From NCBI GenBank assembly GCA_028693335.1, contig JAQUVR010000026.1, positions 1 to 7,911 on the forward strand: DNA of 7,911 nucleotides, given 5' to 3'. The notes under the pieces are model-generated. The model searched no databases. It was not told where the DNA came from and was given only the letters and a program-made list of their open reading frames with translations. Source of the stretch: Candidatus Iainarchaeum sp. GTDB lineage: Archaea > Iainarchaeota > Iainarchaeia > Iainarchaeales > CSSED10-239. The position numbers and the translations under genes are program-made. Below, piece by piece: positions 1-7,911 of this stretch (positions are counted from its first letter, which is position 1; each line of letters begins with the position of its first letter).

Positions 1-1545
1 CCACATGATGATATGTATTCTGTTGCAAGAATATTAAAACATCCAAATGCTCAATTTAGAAATCCAAATACTGGTGGACTTGGTCATCCACACACAAATA
101 AGGTTGTTGATAGAATATTGCATCTAACTGGTCGTGATTCCATATCATTAAATATAGGGACACCAGACCAAACAATTAATGCAGTATCATTAGCAAATGC
201 ACAAAAAGGATTGGATCAATTAGATGATGCATTAAGATCTAATGCTGATGATCTTTTAAAAATTGATGATGAAATTTTAAAAATACAGAAATATGCTAAT
301 GGAGATAATGCTGCTCAACAAAATTTAAATAAGTTATTAAAATCTAAGCAAGATCTTTTGGATGCTCAAAAATCCTTCCAAGCAGCAAGGGATGGTGTTG
401 ATGATGCTATAAGAACAGGAACAAAAACAGTAAATGGTCAACAAGTTGTTGAGATGTCAGATGATGTAACAAGAAATGTTGATGATGTTATTAGACAAAC
501 AAGAAATCTAAGTTCATCAAGAGTAAATTGGAAATTTAATGTTAGAAAATGGGGCGGTATTGGAAAAGGAATTGTTTGTGGTATAATGGGAACAAGTCAT
601 GGTATGTCTGCTCTAAAAGAGAATGGAGAGCTTGGTAATTTAGAACATTCAATAACACAATCATCTGATGAAGATAATATTACTACATTTGAAAAAAAGA
701 AATTTTATTATGTGTTAATATACAAAACAAAAAATTCAGCAGGTAAAGAAGGATATATAATGAAAATTTCTTTAGAGGTTCCAATTCAGGATAAAAAAGA
801 AAATTTAGTTTATAGAAATTTACAAAATGTAATTACTATAGAAAACATAAAAGAATCACAAACAAATCAAGGATTTGCAGACAATGATTCTATTAGAAAT
901 CCTGATGATCCTGAAGAACTTTTAGAAAATTTAACACAAGATGAAATAAATAGAATAAATGAATCAAGAGCACAAGCTGCTCAAAATGGAACCGCAAGTC
1001 AATTAGATTTAAGTTCTCTTGGTTCTAATCCTCAATTAACACAAGTACAAACAACTGGATTTATTCAAAAAAAATCTCTTGTGGAAAAATATAGTGGGTG
1101 TACTTTTCCAGGAAAATGTCAAGATATGTCTAAATCTTGGGGAATACACAAGTGTTCAAGATTTGCATATGAGGCTGCTGGCAAAATTTATAATTTAAAT
1201 TATGCTCTTGGAAATGCATGGGATATGGAAGAGCTAAACACAGTTGTTTGGAAAAAAGGACAAGGTCCTGGTAATTATCAAGATCACTTAGTTCCTGGAG
1301 TTTTGATTAATGTTTCAATTCCAAGTAGCAGATACCCTCAACCAAGTCATATTGTTTTATATGTTGGAAAAGACAATCAAGGAAGAGATTTATTTTTACA
1401 TCAATCAGTAGATAAATCATCTTATCAAGATCTATCAAGATATGTCTCTAGTGGAAACAGATCTGTTTATGCAGTTTTGATTCCAAAGACAGGTTATCCA
1501 CAATATGCGTCTGTTGTATCTAGTAGTACCGCAAGATACGCATAA
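1..1545 (+). CDS. Large protein, possibly 5'-truncated by the window edge: coiled-coil region plus C-terminal NlpC/P60-like papain-fold cysteine hydrolase domain
   Basis: Frame 1 is open from base 1 (cca cat gat gat ATG...), so the ATG at 13 used by the ORF track may be internal and the gene may continue upstream. Stop is TAA at 1543-1545. Codon usage (AGA Arg, TTA Leu, AAA Lys, ATA/ATT Ile) matches the neighbouring genes. Numbering from the Met at 13, aa ~60-165 is charged and heptad-like (LDQLDDALRSNADDLLKIDDEILKIQKY...NLNKLLKSKQDLLDAQKSFQAARD), a probable coiled coil. The C-terminal ~135 aa carries the hydrolase motifs listed in the sub-feature. Confidence 0.8.
   Translation, partial: PHDDMYSVARILKHPNAQFRNPNTGGLGHPHTNKVVDRILHLTGRDSISLNIGTPDQTINAVSLANAQKGLDQLDDALRSNADDLLKIDDEILKIQKYANGDNAAQQNLNKLLKSKQDLLDAQKSFQAARDGVDDAIRTGTKTVNGQQVVEMSDDVTRNVDDVIRQTRNLSSSRVNWKFNVRKWGGIGKGIVCGIMGTSHGMSALKENGELGNLEHSITQSSDEDNITTFEKKKFYYVLIYKTKNSAGKEGYIMKISLEVPIQDKKENLVYRNLQNVITIENIKESQTNQGFADNDSIRNPDDPEELLENLTQDEINRINESRAQAAQNGTASQLDLSSLGSNPQLTQVQTTGFIQKKSLVEKYSGCTFPGKCQDMSKSWGIHKCSRFAYEAAGKIYNLNYALGNAWDMEELNTVVWKKGQGPGNYQDHLVPGVLINVSIPSSRYPQPSHIVLYVGKDNQGRDLFLHQSVDKSSYQDLSRYVSSGNRSVYAVLIPKTGYPQYASVVSSSTARYA
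1075..1482 (+). other. NlpC/P60-superfamily-like catalytic domain (canonical, non-permuted Cys-His-His order)
   Basis: The first motif is HK-C381-SRFAYEAAGKIY (family pattern D-C-S-G-f-v......aG). Sixty-five residues later comes LVPGVLINV...PS-H446-IVLYVGKD (pattern l.pGDlvff...gHVgIYiG). Seventeen residues after that is LFL-H463-QS (pattern iHAs). Codons checked in the DNA: tgt 1153-1155, cat 1348-1350, cat 1399-1401. This is motif recognition only. Confidence 0.55.
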
Positions 1546-1546
1546 A

Positions 1547-1560
1547 TCTTTTTCTTCTTT
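1547..1560 (+). terminator. Pyrimidine/oligo-T tract directly after the stop of gene 1 (possible archaeal-type termination signal)
   Basis: The sequence tcTTTTTcttcttt begins 2 nt after TAA (1543-1545) and has a T5 run at 1549-1553. No stable hairpin is visible. T runs are common in this AT-rich DNA, so support is weak. Confidence 0.2.
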
Positions 1561-1564
1561 CTAT

Positions 1565-1577
1565 TTTATAAATATTT
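1565..1577 (+). promoter_or_regulatory. TATA-box-like element upstream of gene 2
   Basis: TTTATAAATATTT is centred ~35 nt upstream of ATG 1604. No Shine-Dalgarno-like purine run lies before the ATG (tttgaaaataaATG). The geometry fits an archaeal TATA box with a very short leader. The same 13-mer recurs at 3511-3523. Confidence 0.35.
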
Positions 1578-1603
1578 TCATTAACCTATATTTTTGAAAA
1601 TAA

Positions 1604-1702
1604 ATGTTTTTTATAAATAATAAAAAAGGGTTTACATTATTTACTGCCTTAGTATCATTATTGTTAATATCTATAACTCTAGTTTTATTGTTTAATATGA
1701 TT
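1604..1702 (+). other. Prepilin-type (class III) signal peptide plus N-terminal hydrophobic helix
   Basis: KKG|FTLF is followed by TALVSLLLISITLVLLF. The Gly codon ggg lies at 1628-1630 and is followed by ttt aca tta ttt act (F T L F T). Confidence 0.6.
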
Positions 1703-3427
1703 AGAACAGAAGAAACATATTTATCATTAATTTCAAATCAATCATCAATGTCTGATCTAATAACAATCGGAGATCTTGCAAGAGCAGATGCTTTTGATAC
1801 ATTTATTGTTTCTTTAAGATATCATTGGGAATCAACAAATTCAAATCCAGAACAAGCGATGTTATTAGAGAGAAGAGAGCTTGATGCAAATTGGACAGAC
1901 TTTGTTCAATTGATGGCAAATAAACATTTTTTTTCTCAAAGTTTTGCAAAATATTTTGCAACTGCTCTTTTATTGAAATATCAAAATCCAATAGATCCAC
2001 CAGGATATAAAGTAGAACTAAAAAGAACACCAATTGATGGCATAGAAGATTATGATGCTGAAAGTGGACTACACAATCAATTTTATACAGAAATTGTAAA
2101 TCAAATGTTTGTTGATGGTGGTAAAAGAATAGATGTTGTAAATTGTGATAATGAAAATTCTTTAGAATGTACTGGCTCTTTTTATATAACAATTGATGCA
2201 ACTCAAATAGCTGATGAAAATTATGAAAAATTGCCAAAAATAAATATATTAAGACACAAAAGTCAAGATGTTATTCAAAGGCCAATATTTGGAAGACAGA
2301 TCTATAAAATTTATTTTCCATGGCGTGGATTTCAAGCACTTAAAACAGCAAGAAGAATTGTGCATAGTACCAATGCTGAAACTAGTGAAAATCCTGCGTT
2401 ATTTTCTGGAAATATTGGGCTGTTTAATTCAAATATTCATAATACTTTAGAACAAGCAAGACTTGGTGTTTGTGAGCCAAGATCATGTGATTATAGAAAA
2501 GATCTTTTTAAGACAGTAACTGCAGATGGTTTTAGTAATTCTTGTGTTGAACCAGAAAATGAAGAAATTGAAATTACTCCAATAGGTGTTGATGGATCTT
2601 TTTTATCTTATAATACTCCATTATTTGAATCTTATAATTTAAAAACAATTTCACCAGATGGTCAAAGAATTTTTACAAAATTAATAGATGGTACAATTTC
2701 AGCTAATCTTTCTACAAGATCTGGTTTACAAGATGAAAAAATTGTTTTTAATAATGGATTAAAATTAATTAAAGGCTCTGATTTTGTAGAAGAATATGGA
2801 GATGTAAATATATTTAATATTTCGGTTCTTGGAAAAGCAAAAAGAACAAAACTAATTTCAGAAAGACATATAACACAGGCAATTGCTGTAGTTCCGGGAT
2901 TATCCCCCCAATTGTCTTTTTCTATTGATAATCCAGTTACTCTTTCTGGTGGGTTGGGGTTGTCATATGATCAATCAGCAAACACTTATCAACAAATCTG
3001 GGATATTGATAATTCATGGAACAATCAACAAAATAACCTTGCACCACCAGGAGAAGATAATTTTGGTGTTACTAGTCAATCAATTACTTTTAATTGTTAT
3101 GAACTGGAAGCTTATGAAATTACTTTAAAATTTGAAGAAACAGATGATAGATATAGAACACTTGCTTTAGAAAGTAACGAAACAAATATTTGGGTAAAGA
3201 TCAAAGATTCTTTTTTACCATTTACTTTTCCACCAAAGTCAGGAAGTAATTATGGTTATACTAGTTTACAATATATTCCTAGTACTGGATATTTTACAAA
3301 TAATTCTATTTCAAGTTACATGAATCCATATTGGAATGATTCCGGTTATTGGGATGATTGGAAATGTTATTCAAATACCGGTCAACCAGATTTATTAAAT
3401 ATTTCAAGATCATGTACGGCTGATTAA
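1604..3427 (+). CDS. Large (607 aa) type IV pilin-like / class III signal peptide protein, Cys-containing extracellular globular body
   Basis: This is the first ATG after an in-frame TAA (1601-1603). Stop is TAA at 3425-3427. The N-terminus MFFINNKK-G|FTLFTALVSLLLISITLVLLF has a short basic n-region, Gly, then Phe-Thr-Leu and ~22 hydrophobic residues. Residue +5 after the putative cleavage site is Thr, not Glu. There are 8 Cys (181, 189, 290, 295, 314, 498, 588, 604) and many N-x-S/T sequons. Confidence 0.85.
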   Translation: MFFINNKKGFTLFTALVSLLLISITLVLLFNMIRTEETYLSLISNQSSMSDLITIGDLARADAFDTFIVSLRYHWESTNSNPEQAMLLERRELDANWTDFVQLMANKHFFSQSFAKYFATALLLKYQNPIDPPGYKVELKRTPIDGIEDYDAESGLHNQFYTEIVNQMFVDGGKRIDVVNCDNENSLECTGSFYITIDATQIADENYEKLPKINILRHKSQDVIQRPIFGRQIYKIYFPWRGFQALKTARRIVHSTNAETSENPALFSGNIGLFNSNIHNTLEQARLGVCEPRSCDYRKDLFKTVTADGFSNSCVEPENEEIEITPIGVDGSFLSYNTPLFESYNLKTISPDGQRIFTKLIDGTISANLSTRSGLQDEKIVFNNGLKLIKGSDFVEEYGDVNIFNISVLGKAKRTKLISERHITQAIAVVPGLSPQLSFSIDNPVTLSGGLGLSYDQSANTYQQIWDIDNSWNNQQNNLAPPGEDNFGVTSQSITFNCYELEAYEITLKFEETDDRYRTLALESNETNIWVKIKDSFLPFTFPPKSGSNYGYTSLQYIPSTGYFTNNSISSYMNPYWNDSGYWDDWKCYSNTGQPDLLNISRSCTAD

Positions 3428-3462
3428 TTTTTTTTAATGGTTTTTAATGGGTTTGTTTTTTT
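3428..3462 (+). terminator. Cluster of oligo-T tracts immediately after gene 2 stop
   Basis: T8 lies at 3428-3435 directly after TAA, T5 at 3441-3445 and T7 at 3456-3462. This is consistent with oligo-T (archaeal-type) termination. No GC-rich hairpin precedes the tracts, so it is not a classic bacterial intrinsic terminator. Confidence 0.35.
3431..3450. repeat. Perfect tandem duplication of a 10-mer (TTTTTAATGG x2)
   Basis: 3431-3440 and 3441-3450 are both tttttaatgg, read directly from the sequence. Function is unknown. The repeat lies inside the T-rich post-stop region. Confidence 0.9.
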
Positions 3463-3510
3463 GAGTTTTGATCTTCTTATAATTAACTTTTATCAGTTAA
3501 TTAATATTAA

Positions 3511-3523
3511 TTTATAAATATTT
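3511..3523 (+). promoter_or_regulatory. Second copy of the TTTATAAATATTT TATA-like 13-mer
   Basis: It is identical to 1565-1577. It lies 130 nt upstream of ATG 3641, but about 38 nt (centre to ATG) upstream of a small ATG at 3553, the same geometry as for gene 2. It could drive a long leader or a micro-ORF. A chance match in A/T-only sequence cannot be excluded. Confidence 0.25.
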
Positions 3524-3577
3524 CCCTTCTTTAATAATATATTTTAAGAGAAATGTCTGCCTATCAAAACAAAAACA

Positions 3578-3588
3578 TTTATAAAATA
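3578..3588 (+). promoter_or_regulatory. TATA-box-like element with A-rich (BRE-like) upstream flank, best candidate promoter of the giant gene
   Basis: TTTATAAAATA is preceded by aaaacaaaaaca and centred ~58 nt upstream of ATG 3641. This would give a ~30-nt leader containing the AGGA at 3631-3634 (6-nt spacer to the ATG). Confidence 0.3.
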
Positions 3589-3640
3589 AACTTAAAACAG
3601 AATATATAATATTATATATCAAATAAAAAAAGGATTATCT

Positions 3641-6600
3641 ATGGGTTTAAAAAATCTATACTATAAGTTAGAAGACAAGTATTTTGACATGCTTGATTAT
3701 TTAGAAGAAAAAGGAATTAATCTTTATAAAATTGTAGATCCGCTAGAAAAAAAAGGAATACCGACTTTTGCAATATTTTTATTATTGATTTTTGCAATAA
3801 TTGGACTAATTATTTTTTTATTACTTCCAAGCACAGGTCTGGGAAAAGCAGACACTATAAATTTAGTTTTTAAAGATTCAACAAATAAACCCATATCCTC
3901 TGCAGAAATAAATATATCTTTTGATAATCAAAGAATAACTGCTCAAACAGATAATTTAGGTGTTTATGCGATTACTGAATTTGAAAAAAAAGCAGAGCAT
4001 ATTTTAAAAATAACAGACACTAGATATAAGCTTGCAAATGAAATTACTGAGCAAACAATTTCTGAAAAAAATAATGTTGTTCTTTTAGAAATGAAAAAAG
4101 AATCTTTAACAAAAAAAATTTATTTTAAATCTCAAAATGGTTTAAAAATAACTGATAATTTAGATGTTTCAATAAGATGTACAATTGCTGATTTTTTCAT
4201 AACCGAAACGGTAGTTGATGGAGAATTAACTTTATCTAATATCCCAATAAACTGTGGAGAATTAATTGTAGAAATTATAGATAGAGAATCAGATCCATAT
4301 GCATTACCAGCAACAGAAGAAGTTGCTGATGTTTATTTGAGTGGACTTTCAGTTTCTCAAGAAAAGGGAACATTAACTGTTACTGTTAAAGATAAAGATT
4401 CAAAAGTTGGTGTTTCTGGATTAAATATAAAAGTTATAGATGTTGCAACAGAACAAGAATCTGATTTGGGTACAACAAATAATAACGGTGTTTTTACATC
4501 AAGTAATATTTTATTAGTAAATAAAACCTATAAAATTTTTGTGTCAGATCCAAACGGAATATATGGATCTATTGGAGATCTTGAATACCAAACTAATATT
4601 TTATCTCCAAAAAAAATATTGTCAGGATCTGCTAATAATTTTGAAGTGGAATTAAAAAAAGATGTTGTTGGTTTTATTATTTTAAAAACAGTAGATCAAG
4701 AATCAAACCAAGTAATACCAAATGTAAAAGTAACTTTAAAAAAAGGCCCAGCAATTGCAGAAATTAAAGAAACTGGTGTTGATGGAGTTGTTAGATTTGG
4801 TGTAAAGGATACAACACCATATATTGCAGTATTTGATAATAGTAATTATTTTATTTTTCAAAAAGCAGTAACAATTAATTCAACTGAACAAGAAGTTAAA
4901 TTAAAAAAAGTGGATTCCACAAATCAAAATAGTTTAATTGTTTCAGTAATTGATAAAGACAAATATCCAATAGAAGAAGCAACCATAAAATTAATGGACT
5001 CAGTAAATAATTCATTAATAAAAACAGCAACAACAGACATTTATGGAAAATATATTTTCACAAATTTAAATGCTGAATATACTTATTATATTGAAGCAAT
5101 TTCTGGAGTTTACACAGGAAGATCTGCATCAAATTTTACCATTAAAGAAAGAGAGATTAATGAAGAGACTGTTGTTTTAGATATTGGAGAAGGAACCTAT
5201 AATTTAACAATATTGGATACACAAGATAGTCCAGTATCAACTGCAGTAAAAGTTTATGAAGTATCAACAAATAGAGAAATGACTGAAAAAGCAACAACAA
5301 CAGATGCTCAAGGAAATACAGTTATAAGAATAAGAGCAGACAAATCAGTTTATTTTGTTATAGATAATTTCAATAGAAAATTTGTTACAAAAAATTATAA
5401 TGTTCCAGCAAACACAATACTAAAAGAAACAATAAGATTACCAAGATCTGTAACATCAGCAAACATAGAATTTTTAGGATTTTTTACAAGTTCTGGAGAA
5501 ACAATTACAAGCATTAGTCCAGGACAAAGTATTATTGCAAGATTTATATTAAATACAGATAAAGAATATAGTAAAGCAGTAGCACATATAAGAACAGGAA
5601 CTGGAGACACGTGTGGTTCTAAAACTTATTTAGTGGAAGAAGATTTTAGTTATATAAAACAAATTAGTTATGCAGGAAACAAAATTAATGGATCAACCAC
5701 CTATACACCATGTATGGGAGAAGGGAAAGATCTATTAAGCTTTACAAAAAGAGATGGAAAATGGTTTAATGTAAATATTGATAGACCAATTGTTGGCAGT
5801 TATTTAATTGATGCTGAAATAGTAATTAAAGATATTACTTCTCAAAATCAAAATGTTTATTATAGAGCAGAATTTATAACAAGTAACACAGTTTCAAGAT
5901 TCCCATTAGATTCTGTATTAGGAACACAACAAAACACATCAAGTAAACAAGCATTATACGCATACGCTAAACAACAACCAATTTATGTTGGTTCTTCTAA
6001 TTTTTGTGATAATGGTATTTGTTATAGTTTTTCTATATTTGACAAATCAACTAGAACAAGTAGAAATATTATTGATAAATATACAGCAAAAGAAAACACA
6101 GATTATCAACTTCAATTTAGATTAAATGTTGATAATAAAAGTTTACAAGATGTTTCTTTGAATTTAACAAGTTTAGGACAAGGAAAAACAATTAAACTAA
6201 CAAACTATTTGATAGAAAGTGTTGGTTCACAAGTATTGAATGGAAAAGATAATTTTGATAATATAGATATTGGAAATTTATCAGTAAATGATTATATTTC
6301 TGGAGTAATAGATCTTTCAATAATTAACGATCAATCAGATTCATTAATATTCTCTGTTGTTTCAAATGGAGAAGTTGTATTTACAAAAAACATCTTATTT
6401 GAGATAAGAGAATCAAAAATATTAATTGCTGAACAATTGCCAACAGTATTAGTTCCATATGTTCCAAATAATATTTTAATTGCAGTAACTGAAGAAGATA
6501 AAACACCAATTGCAAATGCAGATGTTATAGTTTCAAGAAATAACAATGTTATTGATACTGGAAAAACAAATACTGAAGGAATATTTGCATACGTTTTATC

Positions 6601-7911
6601 AGCAACAGAATTAGATTCAACTGTTGATTTTACTGTAAAGAAACAAGGTTATAAAACAGTAATTTTAAGAAACAAAATTACAGATCAAATATTAACAATT
6701 ACTCCACAATCTTTAGATATTTTAATAGATGTTTCAAAGAATTATTCTGAGAAAGTTCAAGTATCTTTAATTAACAACACAATATTACCATTGTATATTT
6801 CAAAGATTGAAAATAATATTAATAATGAATATATAGATATATCAACAATAATTAATAGTATTTTATTAGATCCAGCACAAAGAATATTATTAGATGTTGA
6901 TGCTAAATTAAATGAAGATGGTATTGAGTTAATGACTCAAAAAGTAATAACTGGAGATATATTATTAACAGTTAAAGAAGACACCTTAGGAAAAGAATGG
7001 ATTGTAAGAATTCCAACAACAATTAGAGTAACCTTTGGAAATAGTGTAAATAATATTAGTTGTTTAACAATAGACCCTATTGAAAATAATTTGTCTTTAG
7101 TAACTACTGAAGATGTTTCTGAATATACTGTAACTATTAAAAATAATTGTGTAGTTGATAAAACTGGTGTAGCATTAGGAAGAATATTTGCAGAACTTAA
7201 TTGGCCAAAAAATAAAAAATATGGAGAATTTAGTGTTGTTTCTTTAAATAATGAATATGATTTAATAGAAAATGAAAAAGTACAAATACTTCCAAGCCTA
7301 AAAGCAAATGAATCAACAACATTAAAAATTAGATTTAAGCCAACCGCAAGTTTAAAGACTATGGTTGCAGAACCAAAAATAATTTTTAGAACACAAAGAG
7401 CAAATGTTAATGGTTTTGATGTAATATCAGCAGAACATATTTCAAAAATTATCTTAAATAATTATGCAAGTTGTATAGAGTTGCCAAAAGGAATAGTACA
7501 GACAATGTATTGTGCAATGAATCAAATGATGGGCAATATGTATTCAAACAACTTTGGATACAACCCAATGGCTTATGACCCCACAACAATGGGTTATAAT
7601 CAACAACAGTTTGGCGGACAAATTGGTGTTCCATATTATGGTAGTACTTTTAATAGTATGCAATATCCAAGTTTAGGATATAGTCAAATGATGAATCAAA
7701 CACGTTTCCAGAATTTTTTAGATTATCCTGCAGCAAATAATACAATGTACACAAATCAATTTGGATGTCCAGCAACAACTATACAAGTAAAAAATAATTG
7801 TGCTGATGAGGCGATGATTAAGTTTGATCCAGAATATGGAATTACTGTTATGAATAGTAATGAAATATCAGTAAAGAAAAATGCTGCTGCTAATATTAAT
7901 ATTCAAGGTGG
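3641..7911 (+). CDS. Giant membrane-anchored surface protein, 3'-open (>1,423 aa): N-in signal anchor, tandem carboxypeptidase-regulatory-like beta-sandwich modules, unique central region, further Ig-like modules and a low-complexity insert
   Basis: I translated frame 2 by hand from ATG 3641 and found no stop up to the last complete codon (7907-7909, ggt). The 1,423 codons counted match (7911-3641+1)/3. An in-frame TAA at 3593-3595 with no intervening ATG fixes the start. AGGA lies at 3631-3634. The gene is absent from the supplied ORF track, presumably because it lacks a stop in the window. Checkpoint codons were verified (tgt 7511-7513 = Cys1291; gga 7763-7765 = Gly1375). Confidence 0.9.
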   Translation, partial: MGLKNLYYKLEDKYFDMLDYLEEKGINLYKIVDPLEKKGIPTFAIFLLLIFAIIGLIIFLLLPSTGLGKADTINLVFKDSTNKPISSAEINISFDNQRITAQTDNLGVYAITEFEKKAEHILKITDTRYKLANEITEQTISEKNNVVLLEMKKESLTKKIYFKSQNGLKITDNLDVSIRCTIADFFITETVVDGELTLSNIPINCGELIVEIIDRESDPYALPATEEVADVYLSGLSVSQEKGTLTVTVKDKDSKVGVSGLNIKVIDVATEQESDLGTTNNNGVFTSSNILLVNKTYKIFVSDPNGIYGSIGDLEYQTNILSPKKILSGSANNFEVELKKDVVGFIILKTVDQESNQVIPNVKVTLKKGPAIAEIKETGVDGVVRFGVKDTTPYIAVFDNSNYFIFQKAVTINSTEQEVKLKKVDSTNQNSLIVSVIDKDKYPIEEATIKLMDSVNNSLIKTATTDIYGKYIFTNLNAEYTYYIEAISGVYTGRSASNFTIKEREINEETVVLDIGEGTYNLTILDTQDSPVSTAVKVYEVSTNREMTEKATTTDAQGNTVIRIRADKSVYFVIDNFNRKFVTKNYNVPANTILKETIRLPRSVTSANIEFLGFFTSSGETITSISPGQSIIARFILNTDKEYSKAVAHIRTGTGDTCGSKTYLVEEDFSYIKQISYAGNKINGSTTYTPCMGEGKDLLSFTKRDGKWFNVNIDRPIVGSYLIDAEIVIKDITSQNQNVYYRAEFITSNTVSRFPLDSVLGTQQNTSSKQALYAYAKQQPIYVGSSNFCDNGICYSFSIFDKSTRTSRNIIDKYTAKENTDYQLQFRLNVDNKSLQDVSLNLTSLGQGKTIKLTNYLIESVGSQVLNGKDNFDNIDIGNLSVNDYISGVIDLSIINDQSDSLIFSVVSNGEVVFTKNILFEIRESKILIAEQLPTVLVPYVPNNILIAVTEEDKTPIANADVIVSRNNNVIDTGKTNTEGIFAYVLSATELDSTVDFTVKKQGYKTVILRNKITDQILTITPQSLDILIDVSKNYSEKVQVSLINNTILPLYISKIENNINNEYIDISTIINSILLDPAQRILLDVDAKLNEDGIELMTQKVITGDILLTVKEDTLGKEWIVRIPTTIRVTFGNSVNNISCLTIDPIENNLSLVTTEDVSEYTVTIKNNCVVDKTGVALGRIFAELNWPKNKKYGEFSVVSLNNEYDLIENEKVQILPSLKANESTTLKIRFKPTASLKTMVAEPKIIFRTQRANVNGFDVISAEHISKIILNNYASCIELPKGIVQTMYCAMNQMMGNMYSNNFGYNPMAYDPTTMGYNQQQFGGQIGVPYYGSTFNSMQYPSLGYSQMMNQTRFQNFLDYPAANNTMYTNQFGCPATTIQVKNNCADEAMIKFDPEYGITVMNSNEISVKKNAAANINIQG
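3758..3829 (+). other. Single transmembrane helix (signal anchor) of the giant protein
   Basis: aa 40-63 is IPTFAIFLLLIFAIIGLIIFLLLP. It is preceded by a 39-aa Lys/Glu/Asp-rich segment with EKKG immediately before the helix, consistent with an N-in/C-out orientation. Confidence 0.7.
3854..5386 (+). repeat. Six tandem protein-level repeats (~86-99 aa period) resembling carboxypeptidase regulatory-like (prealbumin-fold) domains
   Basis: Module cores start at aa 72, 158, 244, 343, 431 and 519. Examples: TLTVTVKDKDSKVGVSGLNIKVIDVATEQESDLGTTNNNGVFTSSNILLVNKTYKIFVSDPNG; FIILKTVDQESNQVIPNVKVTLKKGPAIAEIKETGVDGVVRFGVKDTTPYIAVFDNSNY; LIVSVIDKDKYPIEEATIKLMDSVNNSLIKTATTDIYGKYIFTNLNAEYTYYIEAISGVY; NLTILDTQDSPVSTAVKVYEVSTNREMTEKATTTDAQGNTVIRIRADKSVYFVIDNF. 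The shared pattern is h-x-h-x-V-x-D...P-h..A.h.h.......T-T-D..G.h.h..h.....Y.h.h. Confidence 0.55.
6473..6664 (+). repeat. Seventh, isolated module of the same carboxypeptidase-regulatory-like type
   Basis: aa 945-1008 is ILIAVTEEDKTPIANADVIVSRNNNVIDTGKTNTEGIFAYVLSATELDSTVDFTVKKQGYKTV. It has the same signature as modules 1-6, including the terminal KxGY. Confidence 0.5.
7505..7765 (+). other. Low-complexity Met/Tyr/Gln/Asn/Gly-rich, Lys/Glu-free segment within the giant protein
   Basis: aa 1289-1375 is MYCAMNQMMGNMYSNNFGYNPMAYDPTTMGYNQQQFGGQIGVPYYGSTFNSMQYPSLGYSQMMNQTRFQNFLDYPAANNTMYTNQFG. It contains 11 Met and 11 Tyr, no Lys or Glu, and only D1313, R1355 and D1361 are charged. It is flanked by C1278/C1291 and C1376/C1387. 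Confidence 0.85.

Follow-up and report, generated by a model that had tools for sequence, protein, structure and literature searches.

A conserved archaeal locus of membrane-anchored giant proteins and a prepilin-like protein, with a possible role in cell contact

Introduction

Contig JAQUVR010000026.1 of Candidatus Iainarchaeum sp., analysed over its positions 1 to 7,911 (7,911 bp, here called the window), is an internal slice of a larger six-gene locus, A-P-B-C-D-E, which is conserved across the phylum Iainarchaeota (Diapherotrites, DPANN). The window holds the 3' end of a gene for a giant protein (A), a complete gene for a prepilin-like protein (P), and the 5' part of a gene for a second giant (B). 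The C-terminal domain of giant A has an invariant Cys and His and is a probable new, DPANN-restricted branch of the papain-like NlpC/P60 clan. We propose that the locus encodes tethered surface fibres with a hydrolase tip that act in cell contact, a function read from sequence features and held with evenly balanced confidence. Little is known of how DPANN archaea recognise other cells, hold on to them and exploit them, and the Iainarchaeotes are all uncultured. A fixed six-gene locus gives testable candidates for a contact apparatus, and its murein-type hydrolase modules bear on whether some DPANN archaea have bacterial partners. Two groupings are newly defined here, a DPANN-wide family of small, putatively secreted Cys-His proteins and an N-terminal anchor motif common to many archaeal giants.

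Extent and conservation of the locus

Open reading frame calls and translations over the whole window (G+C content 23-33%) give three adjacent, co-directional frames on the + strand, at 1..1545, 1604..3427 and 3641..7911, as an earlier note on this DNA had read them. The note had taken them for a three-gene cassette that begins with a stand-alone protein of 510 aa, and both descriptions have to be revised. The first frame is already open at base 1, and translation does not truly begin at the ATG at base 13. The closest relative of the window, L001 (the L numbers are our handles for relatives' loci), serves as the reference for full gene sizes. By blastp, the 514 residues of gene 1 (1..1545, +) correspond to residues 2347-2860 of the 2,860-aa L001 giant A (93.6% identity), so that the frame encodes the tail of a giant of about 2,860 aa. 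Gene 2 (P) is complete at 607 aa. Gene 3 (3641..7911, +) runs past the 3' end of the window and matches residues 1-1423 of the 2,470-aa L001 giant B (98.4% identity). With the genes that follow B in relatives, the locus holds at least six genes. None of the proteins matches a housekeeping family in Pfam, in agreement with the earlier note.

Homologues of P number 51 (544-608 aa), all from archaeal metagenome-assembled genomes, and the conservation counts given below for P cover 52 sequences. When one genome of each GTDB species was scanned, the P family turned up in 18 species, labelled archaeon, Ca. Iainarchaeum, Ca. Diapherotrites and Ca. Forterrea multitransposorum, the last with a complete genome of 839,632 bp. 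Across all fetched loci, from these 18 species and from metagenome contigs, blastp tables place A, P, B and C in that order on one strand wherever the sequence reaches, at P identities of 34-93%, and the locus is single-copy in each fetched stretch. The L013/L051 lineage is the sole exception and has a 780-aa M6 peptidase in place of A. The earlier note had asked whether homologues of the three genes are neighbours elsewhere; apart from that lineage they are, with A upstream and B downstream of P on the same strand.

The context downstream of B was reached by a second, metagenome scan seeded with giant C; a word-indexed homologue search with giant C had returned one weak match only. Gene C is followed by D and then E in L033, L034, L037, L038, L040, L042, L041, L044 and L045, all co-directional (examples of D and E lie at L028 15648-18581, L033 14951-18007 and L040 15642-22448). 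In Forterrea-type contigs, the combined length of the six genes is at least 29 kb, some 3.5% of the 839,632-bp genome. More distant lineages (32-41% G+C) have a shorter P homologue of 480-505 aa and retain the order P-B-(small membrane protein)-C, as in L047, L049, L056-58 and L065. Since the P homologue and the giants are kept together in these lineages, the partnership between the pilin-like protein and the giants is older than Iainarchaeota. In L049, L056, L057, L058 and L065 (about 1-17,000), the leader of the shorter P homologue reads ...HG↓FNMFSAIV (the arrow marks the predicted cleavage site), and a giant, a multi-pass membrane protein of about 160 aa and a second giant follow the gene.

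The C-terminal domain of giant A

The Cys-His domain occupies 1048..1542 (+) and was delimited with 31 homologues, an alignment of the family (A4) and hhalign. Its predicted catalytic residues are Cys385 (1153-1155), His450 (1348-1350) and His467 (1399-1401). The earlier note had assigned an NlpC/P60-type hydrolase to the end of gene 1; the resemblance is real but remote, and no Pfam or NCBIfam model detects NlpC/P60. Neither collection gives a threshold match for the last ~165 residues of gene 1, and phmmer of the C-terminal domain against the PDB gives none. A word-indexed homologue search with the 165-aa domain returned one match only, and a search of a representative library of 1.84 billion proteins returned the 31 relatives. 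These include the C-termini of giant A homologues, and many are proteins of 120-250 aa. Such stand-alone Cys-His proteins (P0060-P0082), some with a hydrophobic N-terminus, are 120-250 aa long, and the named ones come from genomes of Micrarchaeia, Diapherotrites and Nanoarchaeota. They form a DPANN-wide, uncharacterised family of small, papain-like proteins that are probably exported.

In alignment A4, every member has the Cys and the His, and the third position is usually a His, with Gln, Asp or Glu as the alternatives. When the family profile is compared with the PDB, NlpC/P60 chains come out on top with three of the four matches, at weak E values of 0.11-0.76. Pfam searches with 25 members give weak matches to NLPC_P60 in two (best E 0.011), Peptidase_C92 in one (0.014) and DUF1287 in one (0.061). 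Aligned by hhalign with a small alignment of canonical NlpC/P60 sequences, the family scores 77% over 31 columns, centred on the His motif. With a looser alignment threshold, the score is 81% over 79 columns, with Cys, His and His all in register with canonical NlpC/P60, at an E value of 1.2e-5 (values of 1-2e-5 here refer to a single pairwise comparison). Together, these comparisons suggest that the domain is a probable new, DPANN-restricted branch of the papain-like NlpC/P60 clan.

Full-length relatives of A are 2,640-3,116 aa long and have a membrane anchor at the N-terminus. For the window's gene 1, the anchor is some 2,300 residues further towards the N-terminus, in sequence that the window does not cover, and hydropathy analysis finds no hydrophobic segment in the part of gene 1 that the window holds. 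The earlier note had credited all three proteins with export, anchoring or extracellular features; all are indeed predicted to be surface-exposed or membrane-anchored, but the window part of gene 1 does not itself carry the anchor. A helical, probably coiled-coil stretch was read from the sequence at 163..525 (+; about residues 55-175). Its region of gene 1 yields a BrxC_4th match (E 9.6e-5, below the cut-off) that was rejected as coiled-coil noise, and the C-termini of A relatives have only weak, coiled-coil-type matches in Pfam. The tail of A also contains a conserved, Gly-rich and mildly hydrophobic stretch, WGGIGKGIVCGIMGTSHGMSAL (window 553-630, gene 1 residues ~185-210), whose counterparts in relatives include FAIDMVIVAVSNWAG and MGLDMVVVYAANY. 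With a hydropathy below 1.0, this stretch is too polar to form a membrane helix. The segment WGGIGKGIVCGIMG of gene 1 was considered as a second transmembrane segment and rejected (hydropathy below 1.0).

Enzyme modules upstream of P in relatives

The position upstream of P carries different enzyme modules in different relatives. P0054, a 3,182-aa homologue of giant A, has the Cys-His domain followed by a canonical NlpC/P60 domain (residues ~3036-3182; E 8.6e-21 to PDB 7cfl). The giant encoded ahead of P in L047, a distant locus, ends (3-617) in the SLT signature GIDPLILTSVSLQESSCNPNA..GGICQLSP, which matches Pfam SLT at E 0.013 and fits the lytic transglycosylase signature. The P homologue of this locus is certain (hhalign 100%, E 4.5e-44). 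In L013 and L051, a separate, secreted M6 (InhA-like) peptidase of 780 aa (E 1.7e-10; L013 183-2525) takes the place. A hydrolase is likely to sit at the tip of A, judging from these modules and from the Cys-His domain. The earlier note's suggestion that a hydrolase breaches another cell's envelope gains support from the NlpC/P60, SLT-like and M6 modules of relatives, but enzymatic activity is itself deduced from the domains.

The prepilin-like protein P

Gene P (1604..3427, +) encodes a complete, Cys-rich protein of 607 aa with a prepilin-like N-terminus, similar to a class III signal peptide. Its leader MFFINNKKG (1604-1630) precedes a predicted cleavage site between G9 and F10 and a hydrophobic helix that starts at 1631. 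The N-terminus MFFINNKK-G↓FTLFTALVSLLLISITLVLLF has the K/R at position -2, the G/A at -1 and the run of about 20 hydrophobic residues expected of such leaders. Position +5 is Thr in place of Glu; Glu at +5 is a feature of bacterial pilins and is not needed in archaeal pilins. Among the 52 homologues, conservation is 90% or higher at G9, at F10 and along the helix, and residues 12-30 form the only hydrophobic window of P. Conservation is highest over residues 9-45 (0.79), reaches 0.70 over residues 201-300 and is 0.36-0.38 in the C-terminal half. The eight Cys residues of P are invariant in the 52 homologues.

Matches to known pilin families are weak and confined to the N-terminus, where ComGF-, ComGC- and PilV-type models are hit. 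The pilin_ComGF model matches weakly in 36 of the 52 members, and for P itself it scores 21 bits against a cut-off of 80; N_methyl (PF07963) is likewise below threshold for P (E 0.19, 11.8 bits against a cut-off of 21.2). One homologue bears the NCBI name 'prepilin-type N-terminal cleavage/methylation domain-containing protein'. An AlphaFold2 (AF2) model of P built from 52 sequences has a predicted local distance difference test score (pLDDT) of 82.6 and a predicted template modelling score (pTM) of 0.79, with a 69-residue N-terminal helix (11-79). The whole-chain comparison by Foldseek, which may overlook a small sub-domain, finds no match to this model at E ≤ 0.001 in the PDB or BFVD. Searching PDB sequences with a profile of P gives no match either, and the head has no known pilin-like fold. 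P is pilin-like at its N-terminus only. The earlier description of gene 2 as pilin-like holds for that N-terminus and its single hydrophobic stretch, but the globular part resembles no known pilin.

The earlier note had pictured P as part of a filament that reaches the host and had pointed to the flanks as the place to look for its assembly genes. Genes for a prepilin peptidase, a PilB/ArlI ATPase or a PilC/ArlJ platform were looked for over 10 kb upstream and about 22 kb downstream, among called genes with their Pfam lists and in the open reading frame lists of the locus stretches, and no relative has one there. A 731-kb scan revealed no Walker A box of the PilB type, and no relative has a small major-pilin gene in or near the cassette. 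With neither assembly genes nor small pilin genes nearby and a head that matches no pilin, the idea of reach by a pilin-like filament is not borne out. A membrane-embedded partner of the giants fits P better than a filament subunit does, and processing of P by a peptidase encoded elsewhere is possible. P may be related to cls.004306/NEQ255, a DPANN-specific 'secreted protein next to S-layer-like proteins' that PMC6393860 lists among its priority unknowns; if so, the locus would be connected with 43 of 67 DPANN genomes.

The giants, their shared anchor and the flanking genes

The window encodes the first 1,423 residues of giant B, which begin with a conserved, predicted cytoplasmic N-terminal motif (3641-3760, +) followed by a transmembrane anchor in the hydropathy profile (residues 44-62, about 3761-3829, +). 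The sole tandem repeat of the window, a trivial one of 24 nt, lies in the segment that codes for this anchor. A Big_1-like beta-sandwich follows (3851-3997, +; just below the Pfam cut-off), and CarboxypepD_reg is matched in four stretches, at 4943-5179 (+) and others (Pfam, 5.3e-20). Matches to bMG3 and SdrD_B, like that to Big_1, fall just below the Pfam cut-offs. The 12 Cys residues of gene 3 are arranged in six close pairs. With one transmembrane stretch, CarboxypepD_reg and Big_1 domains and paired Cys, gene 3 answers well to its earlier description as a giant, membrane-anchored, multi-domain protein.

Across the loci, B is ~2,200-2,560 aa and C 1,620-1,870 aa long. In all loci, the N-termini of A, B and C share the motif YYxLEDKYYxF...KGIxxYKxxDPxEKKGIPxF (looser in A), followed by one strongly hydrophobic helix. 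The strict motif is present in 62 of the 111 distinct open reading frames of at least 600 aa in the loci, and no Pfam model describes it. Its KGI..K element is duplicated, and the motif also occurs in the distant loci L046, L047, L049 and L053. The motif may be a docking or export signal. A reading of these N-termini as long class III signal peptides was rejected, as the Gly ahead of the hydrophobic stretch is not conserved in C or in distant lineages (KVMPSF, KIVPSF). The rest of the giants gives only generic beta-sandwich matches in Pfam (CarboxypepD_reg, Big_1, bMG3, SdrD_B, SpaA and MG4).

Protein D (~960-1,090 aa) begins with a Sec-type signal peptide, and its N-terminal region is hydrophobic and rich in Gly. 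Protein E (at least 1,233-1,448 aa) has the N-terminal anchor MSFxENYQxFLxKINxRxPIK..PLDKKNPLTSFF, and a related motif with a transmembrane helix is found in E of most lineages. Neither D nor E has a Pfam match. B, C and E are distant paralogues, with 22-23% identity over 950-1,380 residues (E 1e-17 to 1e-34).

On the other side of the locus, in the clade of the window and in its neighbours, a LemA-family gene lies directly 5' of giant A, as in L001 (661-1215), L003 (656-1210), L005 (1-410) and L009 (356-913). In other clades, the genes upstream of A encode instead a membrane protein of 111 aa and a protein of 153 aa whose C-terminus resembles a helix-turn-helix. Scans of the window for tRNA genes and Rfam families found none, and nothing else notable lies on either strand beyond the three frames.

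Regulatory signals between the genes

Each intergenic spacer contains a TATA-like box. In the A-P spacer (1546..1603, +) it is TTTATAAATA (1565-1574), about 35 nt before the P ATG, and the block TTTTATAAATATTTTCATT of this spacer is conserved in L001 and L003. TTTATAAATA is possibly the archaeal promoter of P, whose transcript would have a short leader or none. Directly after the P stop codon, T-rich runs (3428..3469, +; T8 at 3428-3435, then T5 and T7) resemble an archaeal oligo-T terminator. They were found in the window and L001 only.

The P-B spacer contains a conserved palindrome, TTAACT-N6-AGTTAA (3483..3500), with the TATA-like box TTTATAAA (3511-3518) about 10 nt after it. The palindrome also occurs at L001 11862-11879, L005 11819-11836, L010 3526-3543 and L038 3182-3199, and it is conserved across lineages whose proteins are only ~40% identical. 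In the window alone, the single match is not significant (0.67 expected). Over the 1.02 Mb of the window and the loci together, 17 of the 20 exact matches fall within 57 nt of the P stop codon. The exact palindrome is present in the P-B spacer of 17 of the 34 loci, and most of the others have a version with one or two mismatches before a TATA-like box; in two loci it overlaps the P stop codon by 2 nt. The palindrome is a candidate, and a probable, binding site for a transcription factor in the promoter of gene B. Together with the TATA-like boxes, it suggests a dedicated regulator of gene B and separate transcription units rather than an operon.

Proposed role and alternative explanations

In the proposed mechanism, the giants would be fixed in the archaeal membrane at their N-termini and stand out from the cell as fibres, with the C-terminus of A as the distal tip. 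The lysine-rich N-termini would place the N-terminus of the giants inside and their C-terminus at the far end of the fibre. At the tip, the cysteine hydrolase would act on the envelope of an adjacent cell (most plausibly a wall of bacterial or pseudomurein type) and cut peptide or amide bonds there, and the beta-sandwich arrays of A, B, C and E would serve adhesion. P would be held in the same membrane by its conserved N-terminal helix and would serve the giants as a fixed partner (scaffold or adaptor), perhaps cut by a prepilin peptidase encoded elsewhere, and no long pilus would form. Each gene would have its own promoter, that of B with the conserved palindromic site. In favour of this role speak the conserved synteny, the N-terminal anchors and surface features of the proteins, the triad in register with NlpC/P60, the modules of relatives, the precedent of other DPANN giants (PMC8204110, PMC6642349) and the share of the genome that the locus takes up. 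Murein-type hydrolases have no substrate in an archaeal envelope, an argument also made for the giant lytic-transglycosylase proteins of Pacearchaeota and Woesearchaeota (PMC8204110; also PMC10936187).

Several points weigh against these tethered, hydrolase-tipped fibres. The link to NlpC/P60 is remote and below every curated threshold, and the window protein has no match to NLPC_P60, CHAP or C92 even at E ≤ 10. An AF2 model of the C-terminal domain from a two-sequence alignment is unreliable (pLDDT 36); in it, a helix follows the Cys and strands with the two His come next, the order of papain-like folds. The tip of A has no detectable enzyme in L006, L007, L015, L019, L021 and L024. Because A ends in this way in several clades, a hydrolase tip is not universal to the locus. 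The lysine-rich N-terminus is the only feature from which we infer the topology of the giants, and the target of a papain-like domain could be the surface proteins of the organism itself, which it would process or cross-link. A free-living life has also been proposed for Iainarchaeota, in work cited in PMC5905446 and PMC10936187. The earlier note had assumed a small-genome episymbiont. That lifestyle is not established for the phylum, for which the same two papers contain both free-living and symbiotic proposals.

In an alternative that we consider possible though on the unlikely side, A-E and P would form the main surface coat of the cell (S-layer-like or a tethered glycoprotein layer), and the Cys-His domain would mature, cross-link or turn over the cell's own surface proteins and take no part in an attack on other cells. 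A gene order fixed throughout the phylum and a very large share of a tiny genome would suit a coat, as would TATA-like promoter elements at each gene, a strongly conserved cis-element at B and the several clades whose giant A lacks a recognisable tip enzyme. The label 'predicted S-layer proteins' has been given to comparable Ig-like proteins of archaea (PMC5898192). A coat does not readily explain the canonical NlpC/P60 and SLT-like modules, which have no known substrate in a murein-less archaeal envelope. Lineages differ, moreover, by exchange of one enzyme module for another, a pattern more characteristic of interaction or conflict proteins, and P evolves rapidly in its C-terminal half (conservation 0.36, compared with 0.79 at the N-terminus). 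The earlier note's own model, in which P is a true tip or minor subunit of a type IV pilus that reaches the host, the giants are adhesins and the hydrolase breaches, appears improbable. The leader KKG↓F and its 20 hydrophobic residues are nearly invariant in the 52 homologues, and the ComGF/ComGC/PilV-type matches, the prepilin-type name and the long modelled helix all point to the pilin class. Set against them, genes for an A24 peptidase, PilB/ArlI, PilC/ArlJ and a small major pilin were found in no relative, either in the locus or near it, P has no Glu at +5, N_methyl stays below threshold, and the globular part matches no pilin structure.

A very improbable explanation is a system like polymorphic toxins or contact-dependent inhibition, in which A is a delivery fibre with an exchangeable C-terminal toxin and serves competition rather than symbiosis. 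NlpC/P60-type amidases and lytic transglycosylases are classic wall-targeting effectors, as in the Tae and Tge effectors of type VI secretion systems (T6SS), and the C-terminus of A does vary by lineage (Cys-His, Cys-His with NlpC/P60, SLT-like or none). That variation lies between deep lineages and not between strains, however; from the window to L001, identity stays at 93.6% through the tip. Where such a system would have a small, variable immunity gene after A, there is always the conserved P of ~600 aa. The locus is also syntenic and occurs once in each fetched stretch, and its flanks contain no arrays of orphan toxin or immunity genes. Scarcely credible is that three unrelated surface-protein genes came together by accident. 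All Pfam matches are to generic beta-sandwich domains, which would allow for such an origin, but all loci examined agree in gene order and strand, even where protein identity falls to 30-35% and lower, and this conservation excludes chance accumulation.

The tethered fibres with a hydrolase tip can be extended to a bolder reading, which we regard as doubtful. The locus would then encode an unrecognised archaeal cell-contact organelle, in which P docks or nucleates a bundle of N-tethered giants with interchangeable wall-degrading tips (papain-like, NlpC/P60, SLT, M6). It is similarly doubtful that this organelle is Iainarchaeota-wide and has a simpler P-B-C form in other DPANN lineages. If the organelle exists, these archaea attach to and open bacterial or pseudomurein-walled partners, and the shared cytoplasmic motif of the giants is the recognition signal of a dedicated export or assembly route. 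The locus offers three handles, namely the catalytic Cys/His pair, the predicted prepilin cleavage site and the conserved promoter palindrome.

Comparison with known systems

As far as the literature could be searched, no description was found of the A-P-B-C-D-E locus, the Cys-His family or the anchor motif. The proposed arCOG01314/arCOG02884 secretion system (PMC5898192) was set aside as a counterpart, with its AAA+ MoxR, vWA and DUF4350 components all absent from the loci. Giant proteins of Pacearchaeota and Woesearchaeota with a lytic transglycosylase domain are predicted to bind and degrade bacterial walls (PMC8204110; also PMC10936187). These DPANN murein-lytic giants (fam00969) resemble the present locus in being surface proteins of up to ~3,000 aa with a wall-degrading module, and the giant upstream of P in the distant L047 has an SLT-like motif. 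They differ in that the window's giant A has a Cys-His domain and no SLT (Pfam gives no SLT match in the window or in the L001 giant A, and the SLT-like motif is seen in L047 only) and in that the organism is an Iainarchaeote. As far as could be searched, those papers describe neither a fixed six-gene locus of this kind nor a prepilin-like partner.

SPEARE proteins of Nanohaloarchaeota (Hamm et al., 2019, PMC6642349), predicted to attack bacterial walls and proposed to help the cell attach to its host and open it, are likewise very long DPANN surface proteins that combine adhesion and enzyme modules, at ~4% of the genome. Theirs are serine protease, laminin-G, toxin-like and restriction-endonuclease domains with anchors mostly near the C-terminus, whereas the anchors here are N-terminal, and Pfam finds none of these domains in A, B, C, D or E, the type III restriction-enzyme domain included.

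The Cys-His domain shares with NlpC/P60 (PF00877, MEROPS C40), CHAP, Peptidase_C92 and the Tae effectors the order and spacing of Cys...His...His. With NlpC/P60, to which the triad aligns in register, it also shares local motifs, xCSxF at the start of a helix and a PGxxI...(S/T)HVxLYxG strand. Unlike NlpC/P60, it has an extra conserved AW/VW segment between the Cys and the His and forms a DPANN-restricted family of its own. Minor pilins and pseudopilins (ComGF, GspK) combine a basic leader up to a Gly, a hydrophobic helix and a large extracellular module. P has this plan of a basic leader to Gly, a conserved helix and a large module in common with type IV pilin-like proteins, including the bindosome subunits of Sulfolobus (bioRxiv 10.64898/2026.04.22.720090), and some archaeal type IV filament loci also encode large adhesin-like proteins (bioRxiv 10.64898/2026.04.22.720090). 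P is set apart from them by the lack of nearby assembly genes, a size far above that of structural pilins, a fold without a known relative and its constant N-anchored giant partners.

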